Of a stretch of DNA of 64,000 nt, positions 3,115 to 43,307 are shown one piece after another (the first letter of the stretch is position 1; every line of letters begins with the position of its first letter). Under the pieces are notes generated by a model, which was not told where the DNA came from, ran no database searches, and saw only the letters and a list, made by a program, of their open reading frames with translations. Source of the stretch: a virus (lineage: Duplodnaviria > Heunggongvirae > Uroviricota > Caudoviricetes); the IMG/VR virus record IMGVR_UViG_3300042892_004166, positions 15,097-79,096 of that record; one strand, 5' to 3'. Position numbers and translations under genes: made by a program.

Positions 3115-3705
3115 ATGAAGAAAATTAAACTATATGAACAATTTATAGAAGAGAGAAGCGGAGAGCTTTTTAATCCTAAGAAAAACAAACCAGTCATATT
3201 AAAACCGACTAAAGATACAGAATTAGAAAAGGAATTCTTTAATCTTATTAGTACAGCGTACTCTGAGATTGGAGGACATATCAAGGTACAATCACCTAGT
3301 GATGTATTTAAAGACCCTGATTGGAACTATTGGGAGGGAATAGATATTCACGGCAGTAATGATTTTGATGTTATCATGTTTGGTGAAAAAACCCGATTTG
3401 GACTTAAATTCTCAGGAGTTGGCCATGATGGAACCAAAGATGCTAAGAGAGATTATATGGATAGACGAGGAAAAGAATTAAAACAACTTGGATATTATAT
3501 AGAAGTTTCTGGTAAAATTGCCGAAATCTTAATTAATAAGTACCAAGTACCTATTGTAACCGACCAAGAAACAGTAGAAAAGGTCTTGGGTAAAAAGGTC
3601 GATTGGATTGGAAACCTAGACGGTGGAACTGGCGGAGGTTGGTATAGTCGAACTATAGGTGGAGGAGCCCATGAAAAAGTAATGTTAGGTAAACCAAAGG
3701 TATAG
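3115..3705 (+). CDS. Capsid-targeting-sequence (CTS)-like family protein 1, function unknown
   Basis: N-terminus MKKIKLYEQFIEE is paralogous to the N-termini at 14949, 15890 and 16395. It resembles the T4 internal-protein CTS MKTYQEFIAE and the (L/I)xE prohead-protease site. Confidence 0.5.
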   Translation: MKKIKLYEQFIEERSGELFNPKKNKPVILKPTKDTELEKEFFNLISTAYSEIGGHIKVQSPSDVFKDPDWNYWEGIDIHGSNDFDVIMFGEKTRFGLKFSGVGHDGTKDAKRDYMDRRGKELKQLGYYIEVSGKIAEILINKYQVPIVTDQETVEKVLGKKVDWIGNLDGGTGGGWYSRTIGGGAHEKVMLGKPKV

Positions 3706-7545: not shown

Positions 7546-8391
7546 ATGCCAGAATTAGCAGAACTTAAACTTACAGCAGCGTATATTAATACAGTATCTG
7601 AAGGTCTTTTTTTTAATAAGATTGAAAAGAATCCCGTGCATAAAGGGGTTGAAATTGATGCAGAATCTACGGTTTTTAAAATTAGTGCAAAGAGCCGAGG
7701 AAAAGAATTGATGGTGTATTTAATCTCTCCAATCGGATATGTTTCTCTCAGAATGAACATGGGTATGGCTGGACATTTTCAAATAACCCCAACAGGTAAA
7801 GAATCAAAACATGCCCATCTTAAGTTCTATTCAGAATGTGGAAAGACCCTGAGTTTTGTAGATGTTCGACGATTTGGAAAGTGGAAAGTTGAAAGCGACT
7901 GGTCAGCGGACAGAGGACCAGACCCCACACAGGACTTTGAAGGATTCCAAAAAAACATAATGGACAATATTGACAAGAAGGAATTTGATAAACCAGTTCA
8001 CTTGGTAATGATGAACCAGAAGTACTTTAATGGAATTGGAAACTACTTACGAGCTGAGATTTTATATAGAGTTGCAGATGCAAATCCATTCCTTCCGGCT
8101 AGAGAGATTCTGCAACAATACCCTGACATTTTAACCTTATGCCGAGAAATACCGCAACTTGCCTACGTAATGGGAGGTGGAAGTATTAAAGACTGGAAAA
8201 ACCCCTTTGGATTAGACGCCGCTCCAGAACATTTCTTTCAATGTTACTCAAATCCAACTATGGCAAATATAGTTGATGCCAATGGTCGAAGATTTTGGTA
8301 CGACCGGAAATGGGACCTTGTTGAATTTGACTCTGATACTTGGTGTCACTATAGCGGAATGCCAAGCCCTGAAGCATACACTAAAAAATAA
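7546..8391 (+). CDS. Fpg/Nei-family DNA glycosylase (H2TH, zincless C-terminus)
   Basis: N-terminal MPELAEL matches the Fpg catalytic Pro2/Glu3. NMGMAGHF, DVRRFGKW and NGIGNYLRAEILYRVADANP match the Fpg HLGMSG / DPRRFG / H2TH motifs. True start is 7546, not the track's 7522. Confidence 0.7.
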   Translation: MPELAELKLTAAYINTVSEGLFFNKIEKNPVHKGVEIDAESTVFKISAKSRGKELMVYLISPIGYVSLRMNMGMAGHFQITPTGKESKHAHLKFYSECGKTLSFVDVRRFGKWKVESDWSADRGPDPTQDFEGFQKNIMDNIDKKEFDKPVHLVMMNQKYFNGIGNYLRAEILYRVADANPFLPAREILQQYPDILTLCREIPQLAYVMGGGSIKDWKNPFGLDAAPEHFFQCYSNPTMANIVDANGRRFWYDRKWDLVEFDSDTWCHYSGMPSPEAYTKK

Positions 8392-10566: not shown

Positions 10567-10576
10567 AAAAACAAAT

Positions 10577-11191
10577 ATGGCATCTAAATCTTACAGAGAA
10601 TTAACAGAGAATTTTTTATCAACCCGTTCTGAAGCAGACTTTACTGCACTTTTTTACAAAGTAAAACCAGGACTTACGACTTATATTAATAAAATAGTAA
10701 AAGATCGCGAAATGGCTGAAGATATTGCCGTAAACACTTTAACAAAATTGTGGACTAAAATTGATCAATATGACCCACAATACCAGATCACTACATGGTT
10801 GTACCGAATTGCATTCAATGATGCATTAGGACATATCAATAATAGAAACAAACAATCCTCCCTGGATGCCCTATCTGATTACGGTGTTGAAGTAAGTGAG
10901 AATGGTGAATTTGTAAGTGGCTCAAAAGGATTAAATGGTGCTATTGAAGATTACGTAATGAAAACCGAACAGGATTTCCTTGAGGAAGATGACGAACTTA
11001 TGGCAAAGTATGGTCGTGCTCTTACTGAAATTGAAAACCTGAAAGGAATGTACCGTGAAATTGTAATTGATCGTTTGATTAATGAGATGAAGTACGAAGA
11101 AATCGCAGAAAAACATGACTTACCGCTACAAACTATTAAAAACCGTATTCGTAGAGGTAAAGCAATCATCGAAGAAAATATGATGTCGTAA
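10577..11191 (+). CDS. Sigma-70 family (ECF-type) RNA polymerase sigma factor
   Basis: Region 2-like DPQYQITTWLYRIAFNDALGHINNR. Region 4 HTH YEEIAEKHDLPLQTIKNRIRRGKAII. Confidence 0.65.
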   Translation: MASKSYRELTENFLSTRSEADFTALFYKVKPGLTTYINKIVKDREMAEDIAVNTLTKLWTKIDQYDPQYQITTWLYRIAFNDALGHINNRNKQSSLDALSDYGVEVSENGEFVSGSKGLNGAIEDYVMKTEQDFLEEDDELMAKYGRALTEIENLKGMYREIVIDRLINEMKYEEIAEKHDLPLQTIKNRIRRGKAIIEENMMS

Positions 11192-12442: not shown

Positions 12443-12592
12443 ATGGGAGACAAAGATACAAATGCAGTAATTTTGATAATTGCTTTAATGGCTTTCCTAT
12501 TTGGATTCTTGGTCGCAGAAGCAATTTACAATGAAAGGCCAATGACTGAAGAGGAATATTATGAACTACAAAAATCACAATGGTATGAGTAA
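12443..12592 (+). CDS. Small membrane protein (49 aa)
   Basis: Hand-translated; one TM helix. Confidence 0.25.
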   Translation: MGDKDTNAVILIIALMAFLFGFLVAEAIYNERPMTEEEYYELQKSQWYE

Positions 12593-12968
12593 AGAACTAT
12601 TTTTATTAAGAGGACTACCAGGAGCTGGAAAATCTACGCTGGCAGAATCATTAAATTGTTATCGTTTAGAAGCAGACCAGTATTTTATGAGTAATGGTAC
12701 TTATGAATTTAATGCAACTAAATTAAAAGATGCGCATGAATGGTGTAGAATCCGATGTGAAGAGTTTATGCAAATGGAACTTAAAATAGCAGTAGCAAAC
12801 ACATTTACCCAAGAATGGGAAATGCAAGCCTACTATGATTTGGCTGAAAAATATGACTATAGAGTATACTCCTTAATCGTAGAAAACCGACATGGAGGGG
12901 TAAATGAGCACAATGTTCCGCAAGAAACATTAGAAAAAATGAAACAAAGATTTGAAGTAAAACTATAA
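12561..12968 (+). CDS. P-loop kinase resembling the kinase domain of T4 polynucleotide kinase (no phosphatase domain)
   Basis: LLRGLPGAGKSTLAES Walker A, compare T4 Pnk GCPGSGKST. Start may be the internal ATG at 12585. Confidence 0.45.
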   Translation: MNYKNHNGMSKELFLLRGLPGAGKSTLAESLNCYRLEADQYFMSNGTYEFNATKLKDAHEWCRIRCEEFMQMELKIAVANTFTQEWEMQAYYDLAEKYDYRVYSLIVENRHGGVNEHNVPQETLEKMKQRFEVKL

Positions 12969-12971
12969 AGG

Positions 12972-13355
12972 ATGGAAAACATTTTTAAAGTTGCCAAATA
13001 CGAAAAGACGGATGAAGGGTTTAAACACCTTGGATATGATGAGTATCAAATCACATATCTTAAAGGTAATAAACCCCATCAAATCCGGGTAGTTGTTAAT
13101 GGTATTTTAACAAATAGAGTTATTAATTTAATCGATGGTAATTCTGGCTATAAAAATCAAATACTATCCGCAATTAGTGATGTTAAAAATGTTAAAATAG
13201 ATTTAAAAACAAGACCGTCAGAAAAAAAGAAGGTAACATTAGCATACATTGGAACATTTTATAGTAAGTTAATCGTTAAAAACGTTAAGAACTATTTGAT
13301 AGGAATTAACAAAGAAGAGAGAAGAGACACATTAACCAAATATGAATTAATATAA
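12972..13355 (+). CDS. Hypothetical protein
   Basis: ORF track. Confidence 0.4.
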   Translation: MENIFKVAKYEKTDEGFKHLGYDEYQITYLKGNKPHQIRVVVNGILTNRVINLIDGNSGYKNQILSAISDVKNVKIDLKTRPSEKKKVTLAYIGTFYSKLIVKNVKNYLIGINKEERRDTLTKYELI

Positions 13356-14479
13356 TGGAAAATCAAAATTCAGTTTGCTACGTAGCAAAAATAAATGAAG
13401 TTCGAGCAATCGAAGGAGCAGATAACATCGAATTAGTTATCGCAGGTGGATGGAATGCCATCACAAAGAAAGGTGAATTTAGAGAAGGTTCCCTAACAGT
13501 AATTGCAACAACAGATGCAGTAATACCTGAAGCCCTTTCTGAAAAAATGGGAGTTGCAAACTACCTAAGAAAAGGTACAAGAGTCCGAACTGTAAAATTG
13601 CGTGGAGTCTATTCAGAATGTTTAATCATTCCAGTTACATATATTAGAGCAAAATCTATTGTAGAAGGAAAGGATTTAATGGAAGAGTTAGGTATCACTA
13701 AATATGAGCCACCAGTTAAACAAATCCAATTAGCATCTGGTAGAAAAATCAAATGGAGAGATAACCAAAACTTCCATATCTACTACAAGTTTCCAAACTT
13801 GAAAAATGTGGCTGGATTATTTACTGAAGCGGATGAGGTTCAAATCACCAGAAAATTGCACGGAACAAATGCACGTTATGGTATTGTAAAGAAATCTAAA
13901 TTGACCCTTTGGGACAGAGTAAGAAAATTCTTAAGAATTGCTGACGAATGGGTTAACTACGAGTACATTTATGGTTCTCATAATTGTGAGAAAGGATCTG
14001 ATTCTCAAGGATTTTATTCAACTGACGTTTGGAGAACAACTGCCGAAGAATATGGTATCAAAGAAAAACTTTGGAGAGCTGTAAAAAGAAAATCAGTCGA
14101 AGAAATTGGTTCTGGTTTTGTTTTGTATGGTGAAATCTATGGTGCAGGAATTCAAAAGAACTATGAATATGGTTTAAAAGATACTAGATTTGCTGCATTT
14201 GATTTAACAATTGATGGAAAGTATATGGACCCTGAATTAACAGAATACATTGTTGAGGAAGTTCTAGAACTCTCTCATGTTACAGTTCTTTATGAAGGAT
14301 TATGGAATCAAGAGGTACAAGATGGTTTGGTTTTCGGTAACTTCATCGACGGTACTAAAGTCCCACATGAAGGAATTGTAATCAAGCACATTACTGGTGA
14401 AAGACAAAAAGTTGCGAAAGTAATTAATCCAGACTACTTGATTTATGGTGAAAAGAATAACGTAGGAGATTCTCACTGA
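13355..14479 (+). CDS. RNA ligase, Rnl2-like covalent nucleotidyltransferase with N-terminal extension
   Basis: Motif I KLHGTNARYG resembles T4 Rnl2 KIHGTN. Downstream acidic and lysine motifs. Confidence 0.5.
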   Translation: MENQNSVCYVAKINEVRAIEGADNIELVIAGGWNAITKKGEFREGSLTVIATTDAVIPEALSEKMGVANYLRKGTRVRTVKLRGVYSECLIIPVTYIRAKSIVEGKDLMEELGITKYEPPVKQIQLASGRKIKWRDNQNFHIYYKFPNLKNVAGLFTEADEVQITRKLHGTNARYGIVKKSKLTLWDRVRKFLRIADEWVNYEYIYGSHNCEKGSDSQGFYSTDVWRTTAEEYGIKEKLWRAVKRKSVEEIGSGFVLYGEIYGAGIQKNYEYGLKDTRFAAFDLTIDGKYMDPELTEYIVEEVLELSHVTVLYEGLWNQEVQDGLVFGNFIDGTKVPHEGIVIKHITGERQKVAKVINPDYLIYGEKNNVGDSH

Positions 14480-14948: not shown

Positions 14949-15893
14949 ATGAAAAGAATTAAATTATTTGAACAGTTTATTGCAGAGAAGGAAGACAATT
15001 CCGATTTGCATAAAATCTATTTGGCTATTAATCCTGATAGTGGGCATAGATGGTGGTCTTATAAAGACTTCGCCGGAGATAATTTCTTTGTACAGGTAAC
15101 ACTTGATAATTACAAAGACATTAACATCAATTCAGAATACCCAATCCTTACATACAATTCTAAAGTAACTCAAAAGCTCCTAGATGAAGGGTTAATTAAA
15201 AAAGAAAATGTCTATAACCTACCAGAACATATCAAACAATCTGGTTCCAAGGCAGAATTTCATAAGTTGGTTGATGGTGATGAAAACATCCCAAAAACTG
15301 CGCATAATGAAAAAGATGCCCTAAAAATTGGATTCCCATTAATTGGAAAACCAGCAGAAGGACACTCAGGACTTGGTATTCAAATCTTTAAGGACCAGAA
15401 ATCATGGGACGATGCAGACCATTCGAAGTTGGATGTTTATTCAGAATATATTGACAAAGCAGCCGAACACAGATTGATTACATTTAAGGGTAAACCATTT
15501 TTCTGGATGGAAAGAAACCCATTGAATGCTAAAGCAAAATCTGGAGAAGGAAAAGGAGACGAACAAATGATGTTTAAATACATTAAAAAGGACGTTACCA
15601 AAATACCACAGAAATTTAATGACCTAGTTGAAAAATTCGGTAAAATATTCTCAGACTTGCCATATATCTGTTTTGATATTATGGAAGATAAATCTGGAAA
15701 ACTATATATAATTGAAAGTAACAGTCAGCCGGGAGTACCATTTGATTCTACAGTTCAGGCATACAGACAATTATTTAATGATTTTTACGGTCGTGATGTA
15801 AATCCAGCGGCTAACACCGAGCTCGAGAAATTGAGTGACTATATGATTAAGAAAACCCTGGACTTTGACCCAAAAAGATTTGAAGTAGAATGA
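14949..15893 (+). CDS. CTS-like family protein 2 with ATP-grasp-like ligase fold
   Basis: N-terminus MKRIKLFEQFIAEKE. GFPLIGKPAEGHSGLGIQIF and YIIESNSQPGVPF resemble the ATP-grasp K-loop and the EVNxxPG motif. Confidence 0.45.
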   Translation: MKRIKLFEQFIAEKEDNSDLHKIYLAINPDSGHRWWSYKDFAGDNFFVQVTLDNYKDININSEYPILTYNSKVTQKLLDEGLIKKENVYNLPEHIKQSGSKAEFHKLVDGDENIPKTAHNEKDALKIGFPLIGKPAEGHSGLGIQIFKDQKSWDDADHSKLDVYSEYIDKAAEHRLITFKGKPFFWMERNPLNAKAKSGEGKGDEQMMFKYIKKDVTKIPQKFNDLVEKFGKIFSDLPYICFDIMEDKSGKLYIIESNSQPGVPFDSTVQAYRQLFNDFYGRDVNPAANTELEKLSDYMIKKTLDFDPKRFEVE

Positions 15894-16408
15894 AAAAAGT
15901 AAAATTATTTGAAGAGTTCCTAGACGAAAAAAAGAAGGGTCTTTGGGACAATATATGGGCTAAAAGAAAGCGCGGCGAAAAACCTGCAAAGCCAGGTGAT
16001 AAAGATTATCCCGATGAAGAGGACTGGGAGGACGCGCAAGAATCTGTTGTTTTAGAATCAGAAGATACTTACAATGACTATCCTGCTGCCGCAAAGGAGA
16101 ATGCAAAGAAGGCCCTGGATTGGAGAGACCAATATGGACGTGATGAAGTAACTGCAGGTACTCCAGTCGGATGGCAACGCGCAAATCAGTTGGCAAAAGG
16201 AGAAAAACTTTCGCAAGATGTAGTTTCCCGAATGGCACAATTTAATCGACATAGAAAGAACTCGAAAATAGCACCAGAACATAAATCAGAACCGTGGAAA
16301 GACAATGGATATGTTGCATGGTTGATTTGGGGTGGAGATGAAGGAGTTGATTGGGCTATGAAAAAAATGGATGAAATTAATAAAAAAGAAAATAATGAAA
16401 AGAATTAA
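15890..16408 (+). CDS. CTS-like family protein 3, acidic and basic segments
   Basis: N-terminus MKKVKLFEEFLDEKKKG. Confidence 0.45.
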   Translation: MKKVKLFEEFLDEKKKGLWDNIWAKRKRGEKPAKPGDKDYPDEEDWEDAQESVVLESEDTYNDYPAAAKENAKKALDWRDQYGRDEVTAGTPVGWQRANQLAKGEKLSQDVVSRMAQFNRHRKNSKIAPEHKSEPWKDNGYVAWLIWGGDEGVDWAMKKMDEINKKENNEKN

Positions 16409-16937
16409 ACTATTCGAAGAGTTCTTAAATGAAAAAATAAAAACAACACATGATTTTAATTGTGCAATGTTATATTTTGACTTTCCAGCAATGGCAACTC
16501 TACATCAATCAATAAGACCTGAAGATATTTTCACAGTAGAAGCTGATGAAAGTTACGGTCTTGAAAATGAACCACACTGTACTTTATTATACGGACTTCA
16601 CCCTGAAGTAACTGTTGATCAGGTTGCAGACAAATTAAAAGGGATTAAACTCGGAGAGTGCAAAGCCTACAATCTTTCTCTTTTTGAAAATGATAAATTT
16701 GATGTCCTAAAATTTGACATGGAAGGTGATAATCTTCATAATGCAAATAAATCACTTAGTGAACTTCCGCACACTACGGACTACCCAGATTATATGCCCC
16801 ACATGACTGTTGCCTACTTAAAACCAGGTAAAGGTTCTGAATATTTAAAGATACTAAATTCAGGAGAACATTCACTAAAACCGCTGCATATTACTTATAG
16901 TATGACAGATGGCTCTAAACAAAAAATAGATTTATAA
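16395..16937 (+). CDS. CTS-like family protein 4 with 2H phosphoesterase (LigT-like) fold
   Basis: N-terminus MKRIKLFEEFLNEK (the track's 16371 start is an upstream extension). Two H-x-T-x motifs, HCTLLYGL and PHMTVAYL. Confidence 0.55.
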   Translation: MKRIKLFEEFLNEKIKTTHDFNCAMLYFDFPAMATLHQSIRPEDIFTVEADESYGLENEPHCTLLYGLHPEVTVDQVADKLKGIKLGECKAYNLSLFENDKFDVLKFDMEGDNLHNANKSLSELPHTTDYPDYMPHMTVAYLKPGKGSEYLKILNSGEHSLKPLHITYSMTDGSKQKIDL

Positions 16938-17435: not shown

Positions 17436-17660
17436 ATGATACGAAGTAAACAAGTCAAAACCACCCCGATTATTATAGACCTTACAGGTCCTGATGGAAA
17501 TGCATTTGCTCTTATGGCTTACGCTAAACGATTTGCAACCCAGTTAGGATGGAAAGATAGAGGTGAAGCACTCATAAACGAAATGATGAGCGGAGACTAT
17601 GAGAATCTCTTACAAGCATTTGATAATGCATTCGGTGAATTCGTAATCCTAGAAAGATAA
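17436..17660 (+). CDS. Hypothetical protein
   Basis: ORF track. Confidence 0.4.
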   Translation: MIRSKQVKTTPIIIDLTGPDGNAFALMAYAKRFATQLGWKDRGEALINEMMSGDYENLLQAFDNAFGEFVILER

Positions 17661-18330: not shown

Positions 18331-18416
18331 ATTTTATATGTCTCTGATGGTTATGGCGACCGGTAGCATTGCAAACGCTACAGATACAGTTCGATTCTGT
18401 ACGGAGACTCAAATTA

Positions 18417-18493
18417 AAACTTTAACATAATTTTAACACTTAAAGTTTTACCGATTGAAAGAATTGTTATATATTTACATAACAAATTAGAAC
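18417..18493 (+). promoter_or_regulatory. Intergenic cassette copy (hairpin-less variant) driving tRNA cluster 1
   Basis: CTTTAACATAATTTTAACAC ... TTGTTATATATTTACATAACAAATTAG. First tRNA starts 18526. Confidence 0.5.
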
Positions 18494-18525
18494 AAAGGTT
18501 CTTTGACATACTGATAACCAAATTT

Positions 18526-18597
18526 GCAGATATCGTATAATGGCCATTACTTTAGACTTCCAATCTAAAGATGGGAGTTCGATTCTCCCTATCTGCT
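18526..18597 (+). tRNA. tRNA-Gly: tRNA-Gly(TCC)
   Basis: Acceptor GCAGATA/TATCTGC. T-arm GGGAGTTCGATTCTCCC. Anticodon loop cTTCCaa. Confidence 0.55.
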
Positions 18598-18661
18598 CAA
18601 ACTATACTGCTCGTCATTGAGTAAATATTAAGGGTATTAAATTGATATACCACAGTGTAGC

Positions 18662-18737
18662 TATTATGTAGTGTAGATGGTTAGCACGGGTAGAGGTAAT
18701 AGTCTTCCAATCGCAGGTTCGAATCCTGTCATGATAA
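18662..18737 (+). tRNA. tRNA, anticodon undetermined
   Basis: Acceptor TATTATG/CATGATA (one GU). T-arm GCAGGTTCGAATCCTGT. Confidence 0.4.
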
Positions 18738-19197
18738 CTAAATTGATTGCCGGTCACAAGTATCGGTTCTTAACGGGAAATCGCTCTCGAGGTACTGTAA
18801 ATTGTATCGTGAACAGACTGGAACGCTTTCGTAACCGCATCCAAGTGGGCAGTAGGGGATGACGAAAAGAAATAAATTGTATAATGGCGAAAATATGGAA
18901 TCGGCCGATAAACATAGAAGTAGCATGAAACGAATATCCAAAGGAGAATATTCTCCGGAGAATAACGAAGCTCAGCGGTATCAATCAAACACCTCCTCGC
19001 GGTGATACTGGAAATTTAATTAGGCAGTTCATTCAATAAGCTTTAAGAATGTTCCGTTACTTTGAAAATACAAGTGATGCGCTCCGAAACCTAGTTAAAA
19101 ACCAAGTTTGAAATAATGCTTGTTCGTATAAAGGTAGTACAATGCTCTTTGACAGCATCGGAGGAGGATCGTTACCTCCACAGGCAACAAATAATTT

Positions 19198-19273
19198 CTG
19201 GATGTAGAGGAGCCCGGTTTATCTCGCTGGCCTTGGACGCTAGAGCACGCAGGTTCGAATCCTGCTATCCAGA
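19198..19273 (+). tRNA. tRNA-Pro: tRNA-Pro(TGG)
   Basis: Acceptor CTGGATG/TATCCAG. Anticodon arm CTGGC-cTTGGac-GCTAG. T-arm GCAGGTTCGAATCCTGC. Confidence 0.5.
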
Positions 19274-19332
19274 CACAGATGAGATTGTTACTAATTCATA
19301 GAACTACATATTGTGAGCATAGAATTAGATTT

Positions 19333-19405
19333 GCCCTGGTGGTGGAACGGTAGACACGCTAGTCTTAGGAACTAGATATTGAGGGTTCGAATCCCTCCCT
19401 GGGTA
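19333..19405 (+). tRNA. tRNA-Leu: tRNA-Leu(TAG)-like (short variable arm)
   Basis: Anticodon arm CTAGT-cTTAGga-ACTAG. T-arm GAGGGTTCGAATCCCTC. One acceptor mismatch. Confidence 0.4.
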
Positions 19406-19411
19406 CAAGGA

Positions 19412-19479
19412 TTAAAGTTAGCTTAGTAGTAAAGCACCGCACTGATAAAGCGGAGAAGGGATTCAAACACCCACTTTAA
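19412..19479 (+). tRNA. tRNA-like, possibly degenerate (anticodon loop ctGATaa; weak T-arm)
   Basis: Acceptor TTAAAGT/ACTTTAA is perfect. D-arm GCTT-agtagta-AAGC. T-loop ATTCAAA is non-canonical. Confidence 0.3.
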
Positions 19480-19486
19480 TTGATTT

Positions 19487-19558
19487 GCCTCTAAAGCATA
19501 AATGGTGATGCGCTTGTTTTGTACACAAGATAACAGGGTTCGATTCCTTGTAGAGGCT
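19487..19558 (+). tRNA. tRNA-Thr: tRNA-Thr(TGT)
   Basis: Acceptor GCCTCTA/TAGAGGC. Anticodon arm CTTGT-ttTGTac-ACAAG. T-arm CAGGGTTCGATTCCTTG. Confidence 0.6.
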
Positions 19559-19564
19559 CTAAAT

Positions 19565-19636
19565 GTTGCGTTAGTGAAGGGGTAAACACGTATCACTTTC
19601 TATGATGAGGCATGGGTTCGAATCCCATACGCAATA
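19565..19636 (+). tRNA. tRNA-Glu: tRNA-Glu(TTC)
   Basis: Anticodon arm TATCA-ctTTCta-TGATG. T-arm ATGGGTTCGAATCCCAT. Confidence 0.55.
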
Positions 19637-19675
19637 CTACGTTGGTTCGCACTAAACAGTCGAGGAAGTGCATTT

Positions 19676-19747
19676 GGGGTTATAGTGAAATTGGCATCAC
19701 GATAGATTTGCATTCTGTTATTCCGGGTTCGAATCCCGGTAGCTCCA
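19676..19747 (+). tRNA. tRNA-Ala: tRNA-Ala(TGC)
   Basis: D-arm GTGAaattggcaTCAC. Anticodon arm ATAGA-ttTGCat-TCTGT. T-arm CCGGGTTCGAATCCCGG. Confidence 0.55.
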
Positions 19748-19752
19748 CAAAA

Positions 19753-19828
19753 GGTCTTGTGAGCCCCATTGGTCGGGGAATTGCACTGTCACTGCTCTAA
19801 AATGAGGGTTCGAAACCCTCCGGGACCG
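19753..19828 (+). tRNA. tRNA, anticodon undetermined
   Basis: Acceptor GGTCTTG/CGGGACC (two GU). T-arm GAGGGTTCGAAACCCTC. Confidence 0.4.
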
Positions 19829-19837
19829 CAAAATAAT

Positions 19838-19911
19838 CGAGGTGTAGTAGAGTTGGTAACAATGTCGCCCTGTCACGGCGAAGGTCACGGGTTCGAGTCC
19901 CGTCATCTCGG
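19838..19911 (+). tRNA. tRNA-Asp: tRNA-Asp(GTC)
   Basis: Anticodon arm TCGCC-ctGTCac-GGCGA. T-arm ACGGGTTCGAGTCCCGT. Confidence 0.6.
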
Positions 19912-20015
19912 CAACAAACTGGATAGGCAAGTATAGAATCTGCAAATTCTATCGGGACTATAAGGTTACTACATATGATAAAGAGTACTTTGCAGACGAA
20001 ATTTATTTAGTAGTT

Positions 20016-20104
20016 TTCTCTTTGGTGAAATTGGCAAACATGGACCACTATTGAATGTGGTTGCTCAACGTAAGTTGATGAAGGTTCGAGTCCTTCAAGG
20101 GAAA
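20016..20104 (+). tRNA. Type II (long variable arm) tRNA, anticodon uncertain (Ser/Leu class)
   Basis: Acceptor TTCTCTT/AAGGGAA. T-arm GAAGGTTCGAGTCCTTC. 89 nt. Confidence 0.4.
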
Positions 20105-20109
20105 CAAAT

Positions 20110-20183
20110 AGCGGGTTGGTAGAAGTTGGTATCTCGTGAGCCTCATAAGCTTAAGGTCGGGGGTTCGAGTCCCTCACCCGCAA
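20110..20183 (+). tRNA. tRNA-Met: tRNA-Met/Ile2(CAT)
   Basis: Anticodon arm TGAGC-ctCATaa-GCTTA. T-arm GGGGGTTCGAGTCCCTC. Confidence 0.5.
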
Positions 20184-20278
20184 CAAAGGAATAATTACTC
20201 CAGTATGATTGGTAAGCGCCGGGAACTAAGGCCCGGTTGGCAAAGTAAATTATTTAGAGGTAAGCAAAAGACTAAATT

Positions 20279-20350
20279 GGATCTTTAGCTCAGAGGCAGA
20301 GCGGTTGTTTGTTAGGCAACGGGTCGAGATTTCGAAATTCTCAGGGTCCT
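20279..20350 (+). tRNA. tRNA-Asn: tRNA-Asn(GTT) copy 1
   Basis: D-arm GCTCagaggcaGAGC. Anticodon arm GTTGT-ttGTTag-GCAAC. T-arm GAGATTTCGAAATTCTC. Confidence 0.5.
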
Positions 20351-20356
20351 CAAAAT

Positions 20357-20428
20357 TCTTCTCTCGTATAAAGGTTATTACGGATGACTGTTAATCATTT
20401 TATCTAGGTTCGAGTCCTAGGGGAAGAG
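20357..20428 (+). tRNA. tRNA-Asn: tRNA-Asn(GTT) copy 2
   Basis: Anticodon arm GATGA-ctGTTaa-TCATT. T-arm CTAGGTTCGAGTCCTAG. Confidence 0.5.
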
Positions 20429-20492
20429 CAAATTACCATTAAGGAATGATACGAGCCTGCAAAGTTCGAAAAGAGTCAGATGGTAATCAACT

Positions 20493-20566
20493 AGTGGTAT
20501 AGCTCAATTGGTTAGAGCACTTCGCTGATACCGAAGAGGTTTTAGGTTCGATTCCTAATATCACTA
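20493..20566 (+). tRNA. tRNA-Ile: tRNA-Ile(GAT)
   Basis: D-arm GCTCaattggttaGAGC. Anticodon arm CTTCG-ctGATac-CGAAG. T-arm TTAGGTTCGATTCCTAA. Confidence 0.6.
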
Positions 20567-20572
20567 CAATAA

Positions 20573-20654
20573 GGGTAGCAAAAGTCGTTCGGATACGGCA
20601 GCCGGTCTGTAAAATCGGTCTCTAAAGGGAGTGGTTCGAGTCCACTGCTGCCCA
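20573..20654 (+). tRNA. tRNA-Tyr: tRNA-Tyr(GTA), extended variable arm
   Basis: Anticodon arm CCGGT-ctGTAaa-ATCGG. T-arm AGTGGTTCGAGTCCACT. Confidence 0.5.
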
Positions 20655-20678
20655 CGTAAAAAAGAGATGTTGGTTCGA

Positions 20679-20703
20679 ATCCAACCTGGTCCTGGGAAAC
20701 TGG
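20679..20703 (+). other. Orphan T-arm/acceptor-like fragment (GTTGGTTCGAATCCAAC-CTGGTCC) without a matching 5' half
   Basis: T-arm motif present but no complementary acceptor within 90 nt upstream that is not already used by tRNA-Tyr. Confidence 0.3.
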
Positions 20704-20734
20704 GTCGGTATTATAACGGATATTATACTTTTAT

Positions 20735-20810
20735 GGACCTTTGGTATAGCTGGTGCGTACGCTAGTCTGAAGAACTAGAGGAGTAGGTTCGATTCCTACA
20801 GGGTCCACCA
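20735..20810 (+). tRNA. tRNA-Phe: tRNA-Phe(GAA) with encoded CCA
   Basis: Anticodon arm CTAGT-ctGAAga-ACTAG. T-arm GTAGGTTCGATTCCTAC. Ends AGGGTCC-A-CCA. Confidence 0.6.
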
Positions 20811-20989
20811 AAATGTCCGTAGTCAATGGTGACAACTGGATCTTTTAACTAGTTATGTATGGAACACTTTAGACGTAAGGTGGAAAATCATGAAGAGTTA
20901 AATAGAATATGCCTCTGAAAGGTCGACAAGATGAGAGTATTTGACAAGATTCGGTAGACAGGTTCGATCCCTGTTACGTGGCTCTAAAA

Positions 20990-21067
20990 TGCGATGTTGG
21001 TCAGAGACGGTCTCATGAGCCGTATCGGTAGATATACCCTCCAGAGGTTCAACTCCTCTAATCGCAA
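20990..21067 (+). tRNA. tRNA, anticodon undetermined
   Basis: Acceptor TGCGATG/AATCGCA (6/7). T-arm AGAGGTTCAACTCCTCT. Confidence 0.35.
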
Positions 21068-21074
21068 CTAGGTC

Positions 21075-21165
21075 AGATATGTAGCTCAGTGGTAGAGCAA
21101 TCCTCAGTACTTCGCAGTTGCAAGGAACATGGACGTGCCGGACAGTTCAATTCTGCCCATATCTA
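21075..21165 (+). tRNA. Long tRNA (91 nt) with canonical D-arm TAGCTCAGTGGTAGAGC; anticodon arm not resolved
   Basis: Acceptor AGATATG/CATATCT is perfect. 41 nt lie between D-arm and T-arm. Confidence 0.4.
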
Positions 21166-21241
21166 CAAAAAAATCGTCTTGGGTCATTTAATATGATTTA
21201 ATGGGTAAAACCTGGTAGGTTAAGCGATATCCTACATATTT

Positions 21242-21312
21242 ACGGGTGTAGTGCAACGGTAGCATTCTGGTCTCCAACACCAGCGATGGGGGTTCAAATC
21301 CCTCCACCCGTG
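21242..21312 (+). tRNA. tRNA-Trp: tRNA-Trp(CCA)
   Basis: Acceptor ACGGGTG/CACCCGT is perfect. Anticodon arm CTGGT-ctCCAac-ACCAG. T-arm GGGGGTTCAAATCCCTC. Confidence 0.65.
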
Positions 21313-21319
21313 CTGTAAG

Positions 21320-21394
21320 GTTCTTGTAGCTAAATTGGTGAAGGCGCTCGGCTCATAACCGAGAGATATGGAGGTTCGATCCCTCCCAAGGACA
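21320..21394 (+). tRNA. tRNA-Met: tRNA-Met/fMet/Ile2(CAT)
   Basis: Anticodon arm CTCGG-ctCATaa-CCGAG. T-arm GGAGGTTCGATCCCTCC. Confidence 0.6.
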
Positions 21395-21399
21395 CAATT

Positions 21400-21472
21400 A
21401 GTCTATTAGTTCAACGGATAGTAACATTCGACTACGGATCGGAAGATGAGGGTTCGAATCCTTCATAGACTA
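21400..21472 (+). tRNA. tRNA-Arg: tRNA-Arg(ACG)
   Basis: Acceptor AGTCTAT/ATAGACT is perfect. Anticodon arm TTCGA-ctACGga-TCGGA. T-arm GAGGGTTCGAATCCTTC. Confidence 0.6.
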
Positions 21473-21517
21473 CTAAGGCAAATTTAAAAGTTCGAATAAT
21501 ATGTAGATATATATAAT

Positions 21518-22150
21518 ATGAAAACATGTGAAAATTGCAACAACGAACATGAAGGAACTTATGGTTCTGGCAGATTCTGTTCAACAAAATGTTCTAGAGG
21601 TTTTAGTACTAAAGCCAAAAGAAAAGAAATTAATGAAAAAGTTTCTAAAAAAATAAGTGCCAATGCAAACCCTGACGTTAAACTATGTTGCATGTCATGT
21701 CAAAATGAATTTACGGTAAAATGGCACAAAAGAAATTCTAAATTTTGTTCTAAATCATGTGCAGTTGCACATCCTAATCATTTAGAATACAGTAGAAGAG
21801 GTGGATTAAATAGCGCTAAATCTCAAAATAAAAGAAGCAAAAATGAAATACTATTTGCTGAATTATGTCAAAATGAATTTAAAAATATTTTAACAAATGA
21901 ATGTATATTTAATGGATGGGATGCAGACGTTATAATACCTTCAATAAAAATTGCTATTTTATGGAATGGTAAATGGCACTATGAAAAAATTACCAAAAAT
22001 CATTCATTAGAACAGGTCCAAAACAGAGATAGGATAAAAATCCAAGAAATAATTAAATGTGGATATGTTCCTTATATAATTAAAGATTCTGGTAGATATA
22101 ATGAAAAATTTGTATTAAGTGAATTTGAAAAATTAAAAAATGCGATATAA
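21518..22150 (+). CDS. Putative homing endonuclease: N-terminal Cys-rich zinc-binding repeats + C-terminal DUF559/Vsr-like PD-(D/E)xK nuclease domain
   Basis: CENCNNEH...CSTKCSRGF and CCMSCQNEF...CSKSCAVAH. C-terminal GWDADVIIPSIKIAILWNGKWH...RDRIKIQEIIKCGYVPYII. Sits between tRNA clusters, as T4 segB does. Confidence 0.45.
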   Translation: MKTCENCNNEHEGTYGSGRFCSTKCSRGFSTKAKRKEINEKVSKKISANANPDVKLCCMSCQNEFTVKWHKRNSKFCSKSCAVAHPNHLEYSRRGGLNSAKSQNKRSKNEILFAELCQNEFKNILTNECIFNGWDADVIIPSIKIAILWNGKWHYEKITKNHSLEQVQNRDRIKIQEIIKCGYVPYIIKDSGRYNEKFVLSEFEKLKNAI

Positions 22151-22212
22151 CTCAGAGGAAGAGTACTCCGCTCATATTGGAGATGTCAGGATTTCGAAAT
22201 TCCTTATCGCAA
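22141..22212 (+). tRNA. tRNA-Met: tRNA-Met/Ile2(CAT), overlaps the 3' end of the upstream CDS
   Basis: Acceptor TGCGATA/TATCGCA is perfect. D-arm ACTCagaggaaGAGT. Anticodon arm CTCCG-ctCATat-TGGAG. Confidence 0.6.
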
Positions 22213-22222
22213 CAAAATACAA

Positions 22223-22295
22223 TCTCTCGAAGCTCATGTGGACGGGCACTCCGCTTTTAACGGAGGGGTAGATGGTTCGAGGCCATCCGGGGGAA
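22223..22295 (+). tRNA. tRNA-Lys: tRNA-Lys(TTT)
   Basis: Anticodon arm CTCCG-ctTTTaa-CGGAG. T-arm GATGGTTCGAGGCCATC. Confidence 0.6.
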
Positions 22296-22359
22296 CAATT
22301 AGACTGTTAAGGTAGGACGTCAGTCACGGAGAGGTGAGCCATACCTAACCCTCTCAAAA

Positions 22360-22430
22360 CTCGAATTGGCGTAATGGTAGCGTATTTGTTTTACATGCAA
22401 AGGGCAGTGGTTCGATTCCACTATTCGAGA
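22360..22430 (+). tRNA. tRNA-Val: tRNA-Val(TAC)
   Basis: Acceptor CTCGAAT/ATTCGAG is perfect. Anticodon arm TTTGT-ttTACat-GCAAA. T-arm AGTGGTTCGATTCCACT. Confidence 0.6.
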
Positions 22431-22437
22431 CTAATAT

Positions 22438-22510
22438 GGTGTTTCTAGCTTAATCGGTAAAGTGCTACACTGTGAATGTAGAGAACAGGGTTCGAAACCC
22501 GGAAACACAC
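22438..22510 (+). tRNA. tRNA-His: tRNA-His(GTG)
   Basis: Anticodon arm CTACA-ctGTGaa-TGTAG. Discriminator C with an extra 5' G. T-arm CAGGGTTCGAAACCCGG. Confidence 0.55.
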
Positions 22511-22604
22511 GACGATACCCAGAGGGTATAAGTCCTGGTCAGAGATTTATTCTTGCAAACTTGGTACCTAAAGCCGAGCGGCCAATCTACGGGATTGGCT
22601 TTAT

Positions 22605-22677
22605 GCCCCTATAGCATAAATGGAAATGCAACATCCTTCTAAGATGTTAAATGGAGATTCGAATTCTTCTAGGGGTA
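22605..22677 (+). tRNA. tRNA-Arg: tRNA-Arg(TCT)
   Basis: D-arm GCATaaatggaaATGC. Anticodon arm ACATC-ctTCTaa-GATGT. T-arm GGAGATTCGAATTCTTC. Confidence 0.65.
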
Positions 22678-22687
22678 CAAACAAATT

Positions 22688-22892: not shown

Positions 22893-23405
22893 ATGAACAT
22901 TTTTAACAAAACATTAGTAATCGATTCGAGCTATATGCCTCGAAGTGTTATCAGTAGTCTTAGAGCATTTTCAATAGTGTATAAGGGAAACGCAAAAGTG
23001 ATTTGGGAGCATGATTGTAAATTTGGTCTATGCGACCCTGATGCTGAAATCTATAAGCCTTCGATTATAAAAGTACAAAAGTACATTTATACTGAGCACC
23101 GAAACGTTCCTCTAACCAGAGAAAATGTCTTTAAGAGAGACAACCATAAATGCGTTTATTGCGAAGAATCCGACAGAAAGAAACTTACAATAGACCATGT
23201 TATTCCCCAATCAAAAGGAGGTCCTAACACCTGGGAAAATCTTACCACTGCCTGCAAAAAATGCAATGGTGAAAAAGCAGACTTAAGTCTGGAAGAGTAC
23301 GGTAAGACCATTCCGCAACCCAGAAGACCTCATTTCCTTATGTTAATGAAACATATCGAAAACATTCCAGACGAATGGAAACAATATCTATTTTTCGACA
23401 AGTAG
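22893..23405 (+). CDS. HNH endonuclease (homing-endonuclease-like), immediately 3' of tRNA cluster 2
   Basis: DNHKCVYCEESDRKKLTIDHVIPQSKGGPNTWENLTTACKKCNGEK is an HNH motif with Zn ligands. Confidence 0.7.
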   Translation: MNIFNKTLVIDSSYMPRSVISSLRAFSIVYKGNAKVIWEHDCKFGLCDPDAEIYKPSIIKVQKYIYTEHRNVPLTRENVFKRDNHKCVYCEESDRKKLTIDHVIPQSKGGPNTWENLTTACKKCNGEKADLSLEEYGKTIPQPRRPHFLMLMKHIENIPDEWKQYLFFDK

Positions 23406-36794: not shown

Positions 36795-37667
36795 ATGATA
36801 ATATTAGACTTGGTTAACCCAGAAAAATCACAGATTAAATACAAAATTAGTCAATTTCCTGACGGTCAGCAAACAGTAGACCTTACGGATTGGAAAGACT
36901 TATTAAGATACGAAGACGCTGTGAAAATCAATTCACGTTTAAATACCTTTAAAGACTTAGAACTGATTATTTGCGCAACTGCAGCCGTTCGTAATATTAA
37001 ACCAACCAGAGAAATTGCACTTTATGTTCCTTATTTTATAGGAGCCCGTTCAGACCGTAAATTTGTTGAAGGCGGAGTTAATTACTTAAAGCAAGTTATT
37101 TGCCCAATTATCAATTCCTTAAACTTTGTAACAGTAATTACATTAGACCCTCATTCAGATGTTTTAGAAGCATGTTTGAATAACTACGAGAAGGTAGATA
37201 ATCACACACTTGCAAAACATGCACTATCAAAGATTGATAATAAGATTGGTGCCCAAGACAGAATTTGTTTAGTAAGTCCAGATGCTGGAGCCTACAAAAA
37301 AATCTATGATGTTGCAAAGAAGTTTGGAATTGAAAATATTATTACCGCAACTAAGGTCCGTGATATGCGAAGTGGAAATATTCTAAGAACTGAGATTCCT
37401 ACATTGAATCAACACGATGACTTAAAATATGTTATCATTGATGATATCTGCGATGGTGGTAGAACCTTTATTGAACTTGCAAAAGCAATCAAAGGAAGCA
37501 GACCAACTGCTAAAGTTTATCTAGTAGTAACTCATGGTATTTTTAGCACCGGATTTGGAGAATTAAACAAATACTTCGAAGGCATTTATACTACAAATTC
37601 TCATAGAAATGTTGCAGATAATGAATATGAACAAAAAACAAACACAACACAATTTAACGTAATATAA
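36795..37667 (+). CDS. Ribose-phosphate pyrophosphokinase family enzyme (PRPP synthetase; could equally be an ADP-ribose pyrophosphokinase, Adps-type)
   Basis: N-terminal FPDGQQTV. Phosphoribosyl-binding loop VIIDDICDGGRT. Overall Prs architecture. Confidence 0.7.
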   Translation: MIILDLVNPEKSQIKYKISQFPDGQQTVDLTDWKDLLRYEDAVKINSRLNTFKDLELIICATAAVRNIKPTREIALYVPYFIGARSDRKFVEGGVNYLKQVICPIINSLNFVTVITLDPHSDVLEACLNNYEKVDNHTLAKHALSKIDNKIGAQDRICLVSPDAGAYKKIYDVAKKFGIENIITATKVRDMRSGNILRTEIPTLNQHDDLKYVIIDDICDGGRTFIELAKAIKGSRPTAKVYLVVTHGIFSTGFGELNKYFEGIYTTNSHRNVADNEYEQKTNTTQFNVI

Positions 37668-37668
37668 C

Positions 37669-37863
37669 ATGTCAAAAAAACCAAAAACAATATTTGTAGA
37701 GCAATTAGTATTAGTTCAGGACCCAATTTTAGGCTCTAAATATGAACTACAAACGGTAGAAGTAGTAGAATCAGAATTCTTTCAGCATCTTGGAATTGAT
37801 GCAACTACCGAACTAGAAAGGATATTAACTGAAGAAATTAAGAAAGCAACTGATGAACAATAG
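37669..37863 (+). CDS. Small hypothetical protein
   Basis: ORF track. Confidence 0.35.
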   Translation: MSKKPKTIFVEQLVLVQDPILGSKYELQTVEVVESEFFQHLGIDATTELERILTEEIKKATDEQ

Positions 37864-38356
37864 AGACAATAGAGAATTTAGAATGTACGGACTAGTTCCT
37901 TACAATATTAGTCCAATTCAGCAAGGCATCCAGTTCGGTCATGCTGTTGTTGAATACGGACTTGAATTCTCAGAGACTCCAGAGTACCAGACATGGGCCC
38001 GAAGAGACAAGACCTTTATAATTCTAAATGGAGGTACTACTAACAATACGGCTTTTATCAAAGGAACTCTTAACAATCATTATTTTACATTATATGACCA
38101 ATGCATCCGTATTGGAGAATTCCACGAACCAGATTTGGGAGACCAATTAACTGCCGTAGTTTTCTTAGTTGATGATAGAGTATATGATAAAGTTGCTTGG
38201 CCAGATTATGAAGGAGATGCTATAGAAGAAAAACTAGGAGGTAGAAGTCTTGAAAAACAATTTTATGAATGGAAGATGAATTTTGCCGAAACTGAAGAGG
38301 AAGCAGACCAAATCATATTCCTAAGAGATTTCCTTAAACAATTTAGATTTGCATAA
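37853..38356 (+). CDS. Hypothetical protein, tentatively PTH2-like (peptidyl-tRNA hydrolase 2 fold)
   Basis: Weak: GIQFGHAVVEY resembles the PTH2 AAQCSHA segment. Confidence 0.3.
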   Translation: MNNRDNREFRMYGLVPYNISPIQQGIQFGHAVVEYGLEFSETPEYQTWARRDKTFIILNGGTTNNTAFIKGTLNNHYFTLYDQCIRIGEFHEPDLGDQLTAVVFLVDDRVYDKVAWPDYEGDAIEEKLGGRSLEKQFYEWKMNFAETEEEADQIIFLRDFLKQFRFA

Positions 38357-38994: not shown

Positions 38995-39185
38995 GAAATT
39001 ATAAAGTAATACACAAGCACGATGGTAATACTACCATACAAAAAATTGAATGCCGAGAAATGACAATTGAACATAGTTCTTATTGCTTTTGGACTGGAGA
39101 TTATGGAGCAACCAATAGGCTTGCATGGGCATTTCCAATTATGTTTACAATTGTAGAAGGTTTACCAGACCCTGAAGAAATTTAA
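38991..39185 (+). CDS. Small hypothetical protein
   Basis: ORF track. Confidence 0.35.
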   Translation: MRNYKVIHKHDGNTTIQKIECREMTIEHSSYCFWTGDYGATNRLAWAFPIMFTIVEGLPDPEEI

Positions 39186-39254
39186 CATAATTTTAACACT
39201 CCCAATTTTACCGATTTAAAACTATTGATTATATTTACATTATAATTAAAACAG
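39181..39254 (+). promoter_or_regulatory. Intergenic cassette copy
   Basis: TTTAACATAATTTTAACAC ... TTGATTATATTTACATTATAATTAAAAC. ATG at 39262. Confidence 0.55.
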
Positions 39255-39261
39255 ATACACT

Positions 39262-39507: not shown

Positions 39508-39511
39508 TACT

Positions 39512-42566: not shown

Positions 42567-43307
42567 ATGGCAAAGATTTACCGTGTTGGAGGATGTATTC
42601 GAGATAAATTCCTTGGATTGGACTCTAAAGATATAGATTTCACTTTCGTGTTGGAAGATACTAAAGGTTTTACGGTTGAGGATGGTTTTCAAATCATGAC
42701 AAACTGGATGACGGACCAAGGTTTTGAAATCTTCTTAAGTACTCCAGATTGTTTTACGATTCGTGCTAAGTTTCCAAAAGACCATCAGTTCGCCGGACTG
42801 GTTGCAGATTTTGTAATGGCCCGTAAAGAGGTTGGATATGTTGAAGGAACCCGTAGACCTATCCTAGAACTTGGAACATTGGAAGACGATTTAATTCGTA
42901 GAGATTTTACCCTAAACGCCCTTGCAGAAGATGTTGATGGTAATCTTATTGACCTATTCGGTGGAGTAGAGGACTTAAAGGCTGGAATTTTAAGAACTCC
43001 GATGCACGCTAGCGCTACCCTAATGGATGACCCACTTCGTTTGCTAAGAGCACTAAGATTTACTATCACTAAAGATTTTCAAATGCACGCTGATATTTGG
43101 AATGCGATGAAGCAACCAAACATTTTACAGAAACTAGAACAAACTGTAAGTGGAGAGAGAATCAGAGAGGAAATCATAAAAATGATGAAACATGATACTC
43201 CAAGAAGTTTTAGACTACTTGCTGACGTTGACCAAGATATTCCAGGATTCTTAGATTTAATCTTTAAAAATGGGATGTGGCTGAAACCAACTTTTGAAAA
43301 AATATAA
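42567..43307 (+). CDS. tRNA nucleotidyltransferase (CCA-adding enzyme) / poly(A) polymerase head domain
   Basis: YRVGGCIRDKFLG...DIDF (GGxVRD...DxD). RRDFTLNA. LFGGVEDL. DDPLRLLRALRF. Confidence 0.75.
   Translation: MAKIYRVGGCIRDKFLGLDSKDIDFTFVLEDTKGFTVEDGFQIMTNWMTDQGFEIFLSTPDCFTIRAKFPKDHQFAGLVADFVMARKEVGYVEGTRRPILELGTLEDDLIRRDFTLNALAEDVDGNLIDLFGGVEDLKAGILRTPMHASATLMDDPLRLLRALRFTITKDFQMHADIWNAMKQPNILQKLEQTVSGERIREEIIKMMKHDTPRSFRLLADVDQDIPGFLDLIFKNGMWLKPTFEKI

Follow-up and report, generated by a model that had tools for sequence, protein, structure and literature searches.

A leader-bearing, Acb1-related 2H phosphoesterase as a candidate packaged and injected enzyme of an uncultured myovirus

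We analysed a 64,000-nucleotide (nt) stretch of phage DNA (the window; positions 15,097 to 79,096 of IMG/VR record IMGVR_UViG_3300042892_004166, Caudoviricetes), and in it one gene whose 180-amino-acid (aa) product begins MKRIKLFEEFLNEK. The protein is securely a 2H phosphoesterase. Its nearest characterised relatives are the Acb1 nucleases, which counter antiphage signalling based on cyclic oligonucleotides (the CBASS system), and it opens with a short leader that recurs on otherwise unrelated proteins of the same phage. With a confidence that falls slightly short of even, we propose a model whose four steps are inferred: the protein would be a proprotein packaged under direction of its leader, cleaved after Glu13 and ejected with the DNA, and its 2H domain would hydrolyse nucleotide signals. 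The proposal rests on the 2H fold and its catalytic tetrad, the proximity to Acb1, a modular and disordered leader with an I/L/V/M-x-E site, and the organisation of the tagged genes as a cassette.

The 2H domain and its relation to Acb1

The gene and its principal features in the window are as follows.

16395..16937, plus strand: 2H gene, encoding a 180-aa pre-protein (13-aa leader, short linker, 2H phosphoesterase domain)
16395..16433, plus strand: leader MKRIKLFEEFLNE (aa 1-13), a proposed capsid-targeting propeptide with a predicted cut after Glu13
16575..16586, plus strand: first catalytic motif, H61-C-T63-L (HCTL, aa 61-64), read from the sequence
16800..16811, plus strand: second catalytic motif, H136-M-T138-V (HMTV, aa 136-139), read from the sequence, inside DYPDYMPHMTVAY

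The 2H assignment is secure because the HxT motifs, the profile matches and a confident structural model all support it. An earlier note on this DNA had placed the protein in the 2H superfamily on the basis of two H-x-T-x motifs, and rightly so: HCTL and HMTV are present, and H61, T63, H136 and T138 are all invariant in an alignment of 44 homologues. The AlphaFold model built on these homologues was confident (predicted local distance difference test (pLDDT) 87.5; predicted template modelling score (pTM) 0.81). It showed a predicted 2H fold with strand 1 starting at about aa 22 and with strands 61-68 and 136-142 each opening with an HxT motif. Comparison of a predicted structure with known ones had also been proposed in that note; Foldseek placed Acb1 structures first among the PDB matches. 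An alternative start (ATG at 16371) was judged unlikely: the protein begins with MKRIKLF in the gene calls of 19 public contigs and in every close homologue.

The family was assessed with profile and sequence searches. Pfam Acb1 (PF23474) matched the window protein with 31.3 bits, a marginal pass of its cut-off of 27, and the generic 2_5_RNA_ligase2 profile reached 24.7 bits, under its cut-off of 27. The PHROGs match was phrog_755, labelled 'RNA ligase', and NCBIfam gave no name for the 2H protein or its tagged neighbours. Acb1 entries were the sole PDB sequence matches (7T26/7T27 and 9Q2G/9Q2Y; E = 0.02 with the single sequence, 0.012 with the family profile), and a block, DYPDYxPHxT(L/V)(S/A)Y, is common to the window protein and Acb1, including that of phage FBB1. 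When the family was aligned by hhalign to a profile of 18 T4-type Acb1 sequences, the match had 93.4% probability (E = 2.5e-7, 82 columns). The alignment paired H61/T63 with Acb1 H44/T46, H136/T138 with H113/T115, the invariant F97 with the base-stacking W74, and Y130 with F107. Acb1 Y12 paired with M25 in MAFFT, with Y27 only two residues off, which leaves the counterpart of Y12 ambiguous.

The number of cluster representatives at 50% identity was 5,489 at E <= 1e-3 and 4,096 at E <= 1e-10. By sequence, we file the protein under a distinct and very large clade of phage 2H proteins with the anti-CBASS Acb1 as its nearest characterised relative. Acb1 is an established anti-CBASS nuclease (PMC9117128). 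The suggestion that Pycsar signals (3',5'-cyclic nucleoside monophosphates) and cyclic tetra-adenylate (cA4) might also be targets was an over-reach; neither is an Acb1 substrate (PMC9117128).

The leader and the tagged cassette

Three further open reading frames (ORFs) of the window carry the leader, and an array of transfer RNA (tRNA) genes follows the cluster.

14949..15893, plus strand: leader-tagged 314-aa ATP-grasp-like protein (MKRIKLFEQFIAE...), cassette neighbour
15890..16408, plus strand: cassette neighbour of 172 aa, leader-tagged (MKKVKLFEEFLDE...), containing a GLWDNIWAKRKRG motif rich in Lys and Arg
3115..3705, plus strand: fourth leader-tagged ORF (MKKIKLYEQFIEE...), 196 aa, apart from the cluster
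18340..22678, plus strand: array of 26 tRNA genes called by ARAGORN, 3' of the tagged genes and the 2H gene
22893-23405: HNH homing-endonuclease ORF, just beyond the 3' end of the array

The four tagged ORFs (starts 3115, 14949, 15890 and 16395) open with MK[KR][IV]KL[FY]E[EQ]F[IL]xE[KR], and their products are otherwise unrelated. Pairs of leaders have 8-11 of 14 residues in common with 3-5 synonymous codon changes, and the DNA upstream is unrelated, so the constraint is on the peptide and not on a DNA element. In the model of the 2H protein the leader is disordered (residues 1-15, pLDDT < 50). It ends L11-N-E13, that is LxE, the cleavage motif of the T4 prohead protease. Glu13 is invariant in the 44-sequence alignment while the rest of the leader varies.

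The 120 homologues that we surveyed carry 109 different leaders, which fall into six or more classes unrelated in sequence (among them MKxIKLFEEFxxE, MIKLLDLLKE, xEFKRMQKLAGIIxE, MKxIKDYxxWLFES, …KIKxIMGLxE and …YLxNNPLLxE). A [LIVMF]-x-E site was present in 108 of the 109, and in 103 of these it lay 7-9 residues ahead of the first strand. The number of leaders with the site 5-10 residues upstream of the core was 106; after shuffling, it averaged 22 and never exceeded 35. The P3 residue of the site is L, I, V or M. In multidomain relatives the site is also kept before internal 2H domains (LNE/K, LLE/KK, LME/S and LTE/S, the slash marking the site).

Packaging mediated by the capsid-targeting sequence (CTS) is established for phage T4. 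The T4 CTS is MKTYQEFIAE (PMC8442874), and T4 gp21 cleaves after Glu in I/LxE (PMC12991175). T4 IPII and IPIII also show this leader, and that of the ORF at 14949 ends …FEQFIAE, compared with …YQEFIAE in T4. Taken with the model, these sequence features support the view that the leader behaves as a T4-type capsid-targeting propeptide would. The description of the 2H protein as CTS-tagged in the earlier note found support to this extent: the leader is common to unrelated neighbours, is disordered, ends in an invariant I/LxE-type site and sits in a hypervariable cassette locus by a tRNA array, as T4 57B and ipI do.

The N-terminus of T4 57B was considered as a leader and rejected, its MMEFKDF pairing, in the multiple alignment, with the post-cleavage linker (…HDFNC) of the window protein and not with its leader. 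T4 57B (L009 7953-8411) begins MMEFKDFST and the adjacent IPI (7592-7879) begins MKTFKEFTST. This likeness may be a leader vestige or chance, and it was not counted as evidence because the T4 residues align with the linker.

It is conceivable, if clearly unlikely in our estimate, that the leader is not a packaging signal and that the enzyme acts only in the cell that makes it. The leader could then be an inhibitory or timing propeptide cut late by the prohead protease, a recombination module for cassette exchange, or another kind of location signal. T4-type Acb1 works without a long leader, and protease-timed activation is conceivable, given that T4 gp21 activity coincides with CBASS triggering (PMC12991175). 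The tags, 71-81% identical in DNA over 42 nt, could act as microhomology, and a 5-kb stretch of phage LR745206 consists mostly of genes with MKxLKKFxE leaders, which would be much cargo if all were packaged. However, the invariant Glu, the hydrophobic P3 and the fixed distance to the fold are kept across dissimilar leader classes, which argues for a processing site at the protein level rather than DNA homology. The similarity to the experimentally defined T4 CTS, FIAE ending included, also speaks for packaging, as do relatives fused to an Alt-like ADP-ribosyltransferase and the occurrence of 2H domains in large proteins of Gordonia phages, of which that of GMA2 is annotated as a putative structural protein.

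The 314-aa protein is RimK/YheCD/D-Ala-D-Ala-ligase-like, with all of its Pfam and NCBIfam ATP-grasp matches under cut-off; if the tag means packaging, it would be an injected peptide or protein ligase. The PHROG matches of the 172-aa protein are all of unknown function, and its Lys/Arg-rich 'GLWDNIWAKRKRGEKPAKPG' motif recurs within long phage protein families (PHROGs 2859, 11470 and 22379). The 196-aa ORF had no family match in Pfam, PHROGs or NCBIfam.

The cassette also differs between phages. In three contigs of close relatives (L006-L008), the genes between an RNA ligase gene and the 2H gene vary in number and content, and all are tagged. The ATP-grasp and 172-aa genes are replaced there by genes for a 168-aa Zn-ribbon protein (or a 270-aa form with DUF5824), a 99-aa ORF and a 119-aa ORF. 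In a more distant relative, the 192-kb ENA contig GROS21-1 scaffold_11 (L020 8834-11182), four consecutive genes are tagged, in the order Zn-ribbon protein, PAP2 phosphatase, 2H and NUDIX (MEPIKLFDDFVNE). By its predicted content, this array points to a kit of tagged enzymes that hydrolyse phosphoesters and nucleotides. In T-even phages, internal-protein loci combine unrelated cargo with a shared leader and high turnover (PMC3012670, PMC12373910). The T4 map runs deoxynucleoside monophosphate kinase, 57A, 57B (acb1), ipI and a tRNA cluster with a homing endonuclease. The window mirrors this order with a guanylate-kinase-like gene, the tagged genes and the 2H gene, the 26-tRNA array and, just beyond it, the HNH ORF.

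In the uncultured 635-kb phage LR745206 (L001 5669-11441), most genes open with related leaders (MKHLKKFNES, MKYLKTFESY, MKYLTKYKLFES and others). A sizeable fraction of the accessory genes in huge phages may carry the tag.

Possible roles of the enzyme

On the proposal that we prefer, the leader would carry the pre-protein into the assembling prohead, where a gp21-type (S77), Glu-specific prohead protease would clip it after Glu13. The mature 2H phosphoesterase of about 167 aa would be retained in the head and would enter the cell with the DNA. Its HxT/HxT tetrad would then cleave nucleotide second messengers without a metal, as in Acb1: attack of the 2'-OH on the 3'-5' bond would produce a 2',3'-cyclic phosphate, which would subsequently be opened. 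CBASS-type signalling would be blunted ahead of any phage gene expression.

The neighbours and fusion partners of homologues bear on this function by association. On contig L021, a 74-aa gene of the Acb2/Tad1-hairpin family (10573-10797; 44 bits, cut-off 27) begins 3 nt downstream of the 2H gene; both Acb2 and Tad1 act as sponges for cyclic nucleotides. The homologue in LR745206 is fused to an RNase T/oligoribonuclease-type exonuclease, and in other family members the fusion partner is an ADP-ribosyltransferase domain of the exoenzyme type (Pfam ADPrib_exo_Tox), the kind to which the packaged T4 ADP-ribosyltransferase Alt presumably belongs. The cultured Vibrio phage pv27, which has T4-like gene content, encodes a clear Acb1 (OR413349, 121790-122314; 130 bits) after a 27-aa leader ending ITE, and the neighbours of this gene begin MKFKQFLAE and MKFKEYLNE. 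Leader-tagged homologues are also carried by the cultured phages phiKT1024 and phiTY18. The sponge gene, the exonuclease and ADP-ribosyltransferase fusions and the leader-tagged Acb1 of pv27 all favour a packaged enzyme acting on nucleotide signals. Further fusions involve GNAT and kinase-like modules, and one 1,475-aa protein (P0273) joins a 2H domain to a CCA-adding enzyme. Among the large Gordonia phage proteins with 2H domains, that of GMA2 is annotated as a putative structural protein and others as RNA ligase.

The genes neighbouring the sponge gene on L021 bear another shared leader class, MKxxxLKxLIxEE. A 74-aa ORF of the window (17436-17660) was considered as a sponge of this family and discarded, having no similarity to Acb2/Tad1 and no Pfam match.

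The same fold could serve an offensive RNase or a 2'-5' phosphodiesterase (Usb1-like, or like viral NS2/VP3) that trims or cuts host RNAs or 2'-5' oligonucleotides and not 3'-5' cyclic signals; Iyer et al. (2017, PMC5512222) put forward both roles for the 2H domains found in polyvalent phage proteins. We consider this quite improbable: sequence similarity favours Acb1 over Usb1, NS2 and VP3, no RNA-binding partner domain is present, and the adjacent Acb2/Tad1 gene on L021 favours interference with nucleotide signals.

Several observations weigh against a packaged, Acb1-like phosphodiesterase. The generic profile PF13563 (2_5_RNA_ligase2) matches all 44 family members as well as Acb1 does (best E-values 1.8e-8 for Acb1 and 2.2e-8 for PF13563), and the top viral structural matches in BFVD are annotated as cyclic phosphodiesterase or 2'-5' RNA ligase, with Acb1-named entries lower. 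Neither the alignment nor the model showed a counterpart of the Acb1 C-terminal lid (145-152), E141 or W147; the C-terminal third of the window protein consists of helix 148-153 and three strands, unlike Acb1 in length and sequence. The 2H gene lies about 1.9 kb from RNA ligase and kinase genes in this phage. An active prohead protease and scaffold were not observed for this lineage on the contigs that extend the window. Lastly, known CBASS triggers such as gp21 act late (PMC12991175), and the benefit of pre-delivery is therefore not obvious. The earlier note's idea that the enzyme would destroy immune signals on delivery accordingly fared unevenly: the Acb1 kinship, the leader and the L021 sponge gene speak for it, whereas the reach to Pycsar and cA4 went too far and the Acb1 lid residues are absent.

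The search for the protease did return one S77 protein near the window. A 132-aa ORF of Peptidase_S77, the T4 gp21 family, is located about 1.7 kb past the endolysin gene and window 3' end (L013 12613-13011); it is kept on 33 contigs and followed by a homing endonuclease gene. Judged by its residues, this paralogue is truncated and inactive: Tyr takes the place of the catalytic His85, and the stretch around Ser140 is absent. Full-length S77 proteins were also recovered, and were rejected as the protease of this lineage since they sit in canonical T4 head modules of different phages. The annotated protease of pv27 was rejected as a gp21 counterpart, as it has no similarity to T4 gp21. An 896-aa ORF after the tail tube gene on the extending contigs was not recognisable as a T4 portal.

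Three genes of the window bear on a role in RNA repair.

12561..12968, plus strand: P-loop kinase (AAA_33, polynucleotide-kinase-like) without the leader, from profile matches
13355..14479, plus strand: RNA ligase of the DraRnl/DRB0094 type with an N-terminal OB domain and without the leader (Pfam RNA_ligase, PHA02142 OB domain)
42567..43307, plus strand: short CCA-adding enzyme, 246 aa, consisting of the head and RNA-binding part; the HD phosphohydrolase domain that the bacterial repair enzyme has is absent

Packaged or not, the enzyme could be an RNA end-healing 2',3'-cyclic phosphodiesterase that opens the cyclic phosphate on nuclease-cut tRNAs. A host nuclease would cut the anticodon or acceptor stem, and the kinase, the DraRnl-type ligase and/or the CCA-adding enzyme would then restore the tRNA. 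We regard this role, the main alternative, as unlikely, while giving it appreciable weight. In its favour, the window has 29 tRNA genes together with genes for an RNA ligase, a P-loop kinase and a CCA-adding enzyme without the HD repair domain; cyclic phosphodiesterase is the annotation of the top BFVD matches; a CCA-adding enzyme and the 2H domain are joined in P0273; and Iyer and colleagues proposed such a role for jumbo-phage 2H enzymes (PMC7824862). On the other hand, the ThpR/LigT equivalog TIGR02258 gave no NCBIfam match at E <= 0.01 and PF02834 matched only 4 of the 44 family members, weakly. RNA ligase genes were not found within 10 kb of three distant homologues (L019, L020 and L021), which makes the linkage of ligase and 2H lineage-specific. 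The ligase and kinase lack the leader, whereas the 2H protein has it in common with unrelated cassette genes; the two metallophosphoesterases of the window could already heal 3' ends; and the neighbours of homologues elsewhere are Acb2/Tad1, NUDIX and PAP2 genes. The earlier note had suggested healing together with Rnl2 and Pnk genes. Ligase and kinase genes do lie nearby, but the linkage is confined to this lineage and the ligase is not of the Rnl2 type: it scored 106 bits with TIGR02306, under that model's cut-off, and its best match was the Deinococcus DRB0094 (DraRnl) type.

The remaining features characterise the phage. All window genes lie on the plus strand, and the GC content is 34.8%. 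Contigs with identical window proteins extend the window in both directions, and upstream they carry T4-type TerL, tail sheath and tail tube genes arranged 17-18-19 as in T4. Contigs related to it are up to 236-243 kb long, ENA ERZ28593943 LIAN20-1 scaffold_1 being an example, and the phage is an uncultured low-GC myovirus. When an 8-kb region was compared at the DNA level with 50,697 phage records, no related genome came up, the matches being to tRNA and short gene fragments only. A tblastn search with the DNA ligase gave no useful phylogenetic placement, and a look-up of the first window ORF (70-2244) matched no record. The window further encodes a holin, a DNA ligase, an endolysin, the two metallophosphoesterases, and a nicotinamide adenine dinucleotide (NAD) salvage pair at 36795-41041, namely ribose-phosphate pyrophosphokinase (PRPP synthetase) and nicotinamide phosphoribosyltransferase (NAMPT). 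The pair is consistent with a role against NAD-depleting defences. At 20016-20105, ARAGORN calls a 90-nt tRNA with a four-base anticodon, 'ttga', to which it assigns no amino acid; a type II tRNA-Ser(UGA) whose loop was miscalled, or an unusual tRNA, may lie behind this call.

Implications and comparison with known systems

To our knowledge, every Acb1-type nuclease characterised so far is produced only after infection. An enzyme arriving with the DNA could clear the second messengers of immunity from the very start, much as T4 IPI acts against restriction. In the literature searched, we found neither a stand-alone Acb1-like enzyme described with such a leader nor a family-wide [LIVM]xE rule. 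Related ideas have been put forward: in 2017, Iyer et al. predicted that the 2H domains carried by packaged polyvalent proteins enter along with the DNA and degrade host signalling nucleotides (PMC5512222), and in a 2025 preprint an ejectosome protein inhibits CBASS.

More broadly, and only tentatively, we suggest that T4-like and jumbo myoviruses from the environment use lineage-specific Glu-site leaders to fill their capsids with enzymes, the set of which changes, and inject them ready-made against nucleotide-based immunity. The enzymes seen with such leaders are Acb1-like 2H proteins, NUDIX and PAP2 enzymes and ATP-grasp ligases, with ADP-ribosyltransferase as a 2H fusion. If this is true, a 2H family of >4,000 clusters would almost always be made as a proprotein, and the capsid-targeting and internal-protein paradigm would reach from T-even coliphages to abundant uncultured phages, with capsid targeting delivering enzymes beyond stoichiometric inhibitors. 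From sequence alone, the combination of a leader and [LIVM]xE would then allow the injected effectors of uncultured phages to be listed. Metagenomes could be screened with this signature for injected proteins that counter defence, and the tagged ATP-grasp, NUDIX and PAP2 proteins would be immediate candidates. The leaders may also serve to package foreign cargo into non-model phages.

Among known systems, Acb1 (T4 57B; Erwinia phage FBB1, 7T26/7T27) resembles the window protein in its HxT/HxT tetrad, the DYPDYxPHxT(L/V)(S/A)Y block and the aromatics that align with W74 and F107 (F97 and Y130). It is likewise phage-encoded, of about 150-180 aa, and adjoins leader-tagged genes of the internal-protein type and a tRNA cluster. 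The window protein differs in its identity to Acb1 of about 20% and its separate clade, in a 13-aa cleavable-looking leader that T4-type Acb1 lacks, and in a longer C-terminal third without the lid residues E141 and W147, with which Acb1 encloses its ligand and reads adenine. From ThpR/LigT and related RNA 2',3'-cyclic phosphodiesterases (for example drCPDase 5H7F and PH0099 1VGJ) it differs in that the LigT-type signatures outside the HxT motifs are absent. The 2H domains of polyvalent proteins (PMC5512222) are comparable in that family members occur in multidomain proteins with ADP-ribosyltransferase, GNAT, kinase-like and CCA-adding domains; unlike them, the window enzyme stands alone with a short leader and forms no part of a giant protein linked to MuF or a portal.

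The leader itself finds its closest parallels elsewhere. In pv27, a leader also precedes an Acb1 domain and the neighbours are tagged, although the pv27 protein is a true T4-type Acb1 with a short C-terminus and about 31% identity to the window protein. The internal proteins of T4 (IPI, IPII, IPIII), together with Alt, likewise place a short leader ending in I/LxE on unrelated proteins encoded in variable cassettes near tRNA genes. Unlike in T4, the cargo here is a predicted hydrolytic enzyme and not a small basic GmrSD inhibitor, the leader is three residues longer, and the host phage is an uncultured low-GC myovirus of about 236-243 kb.

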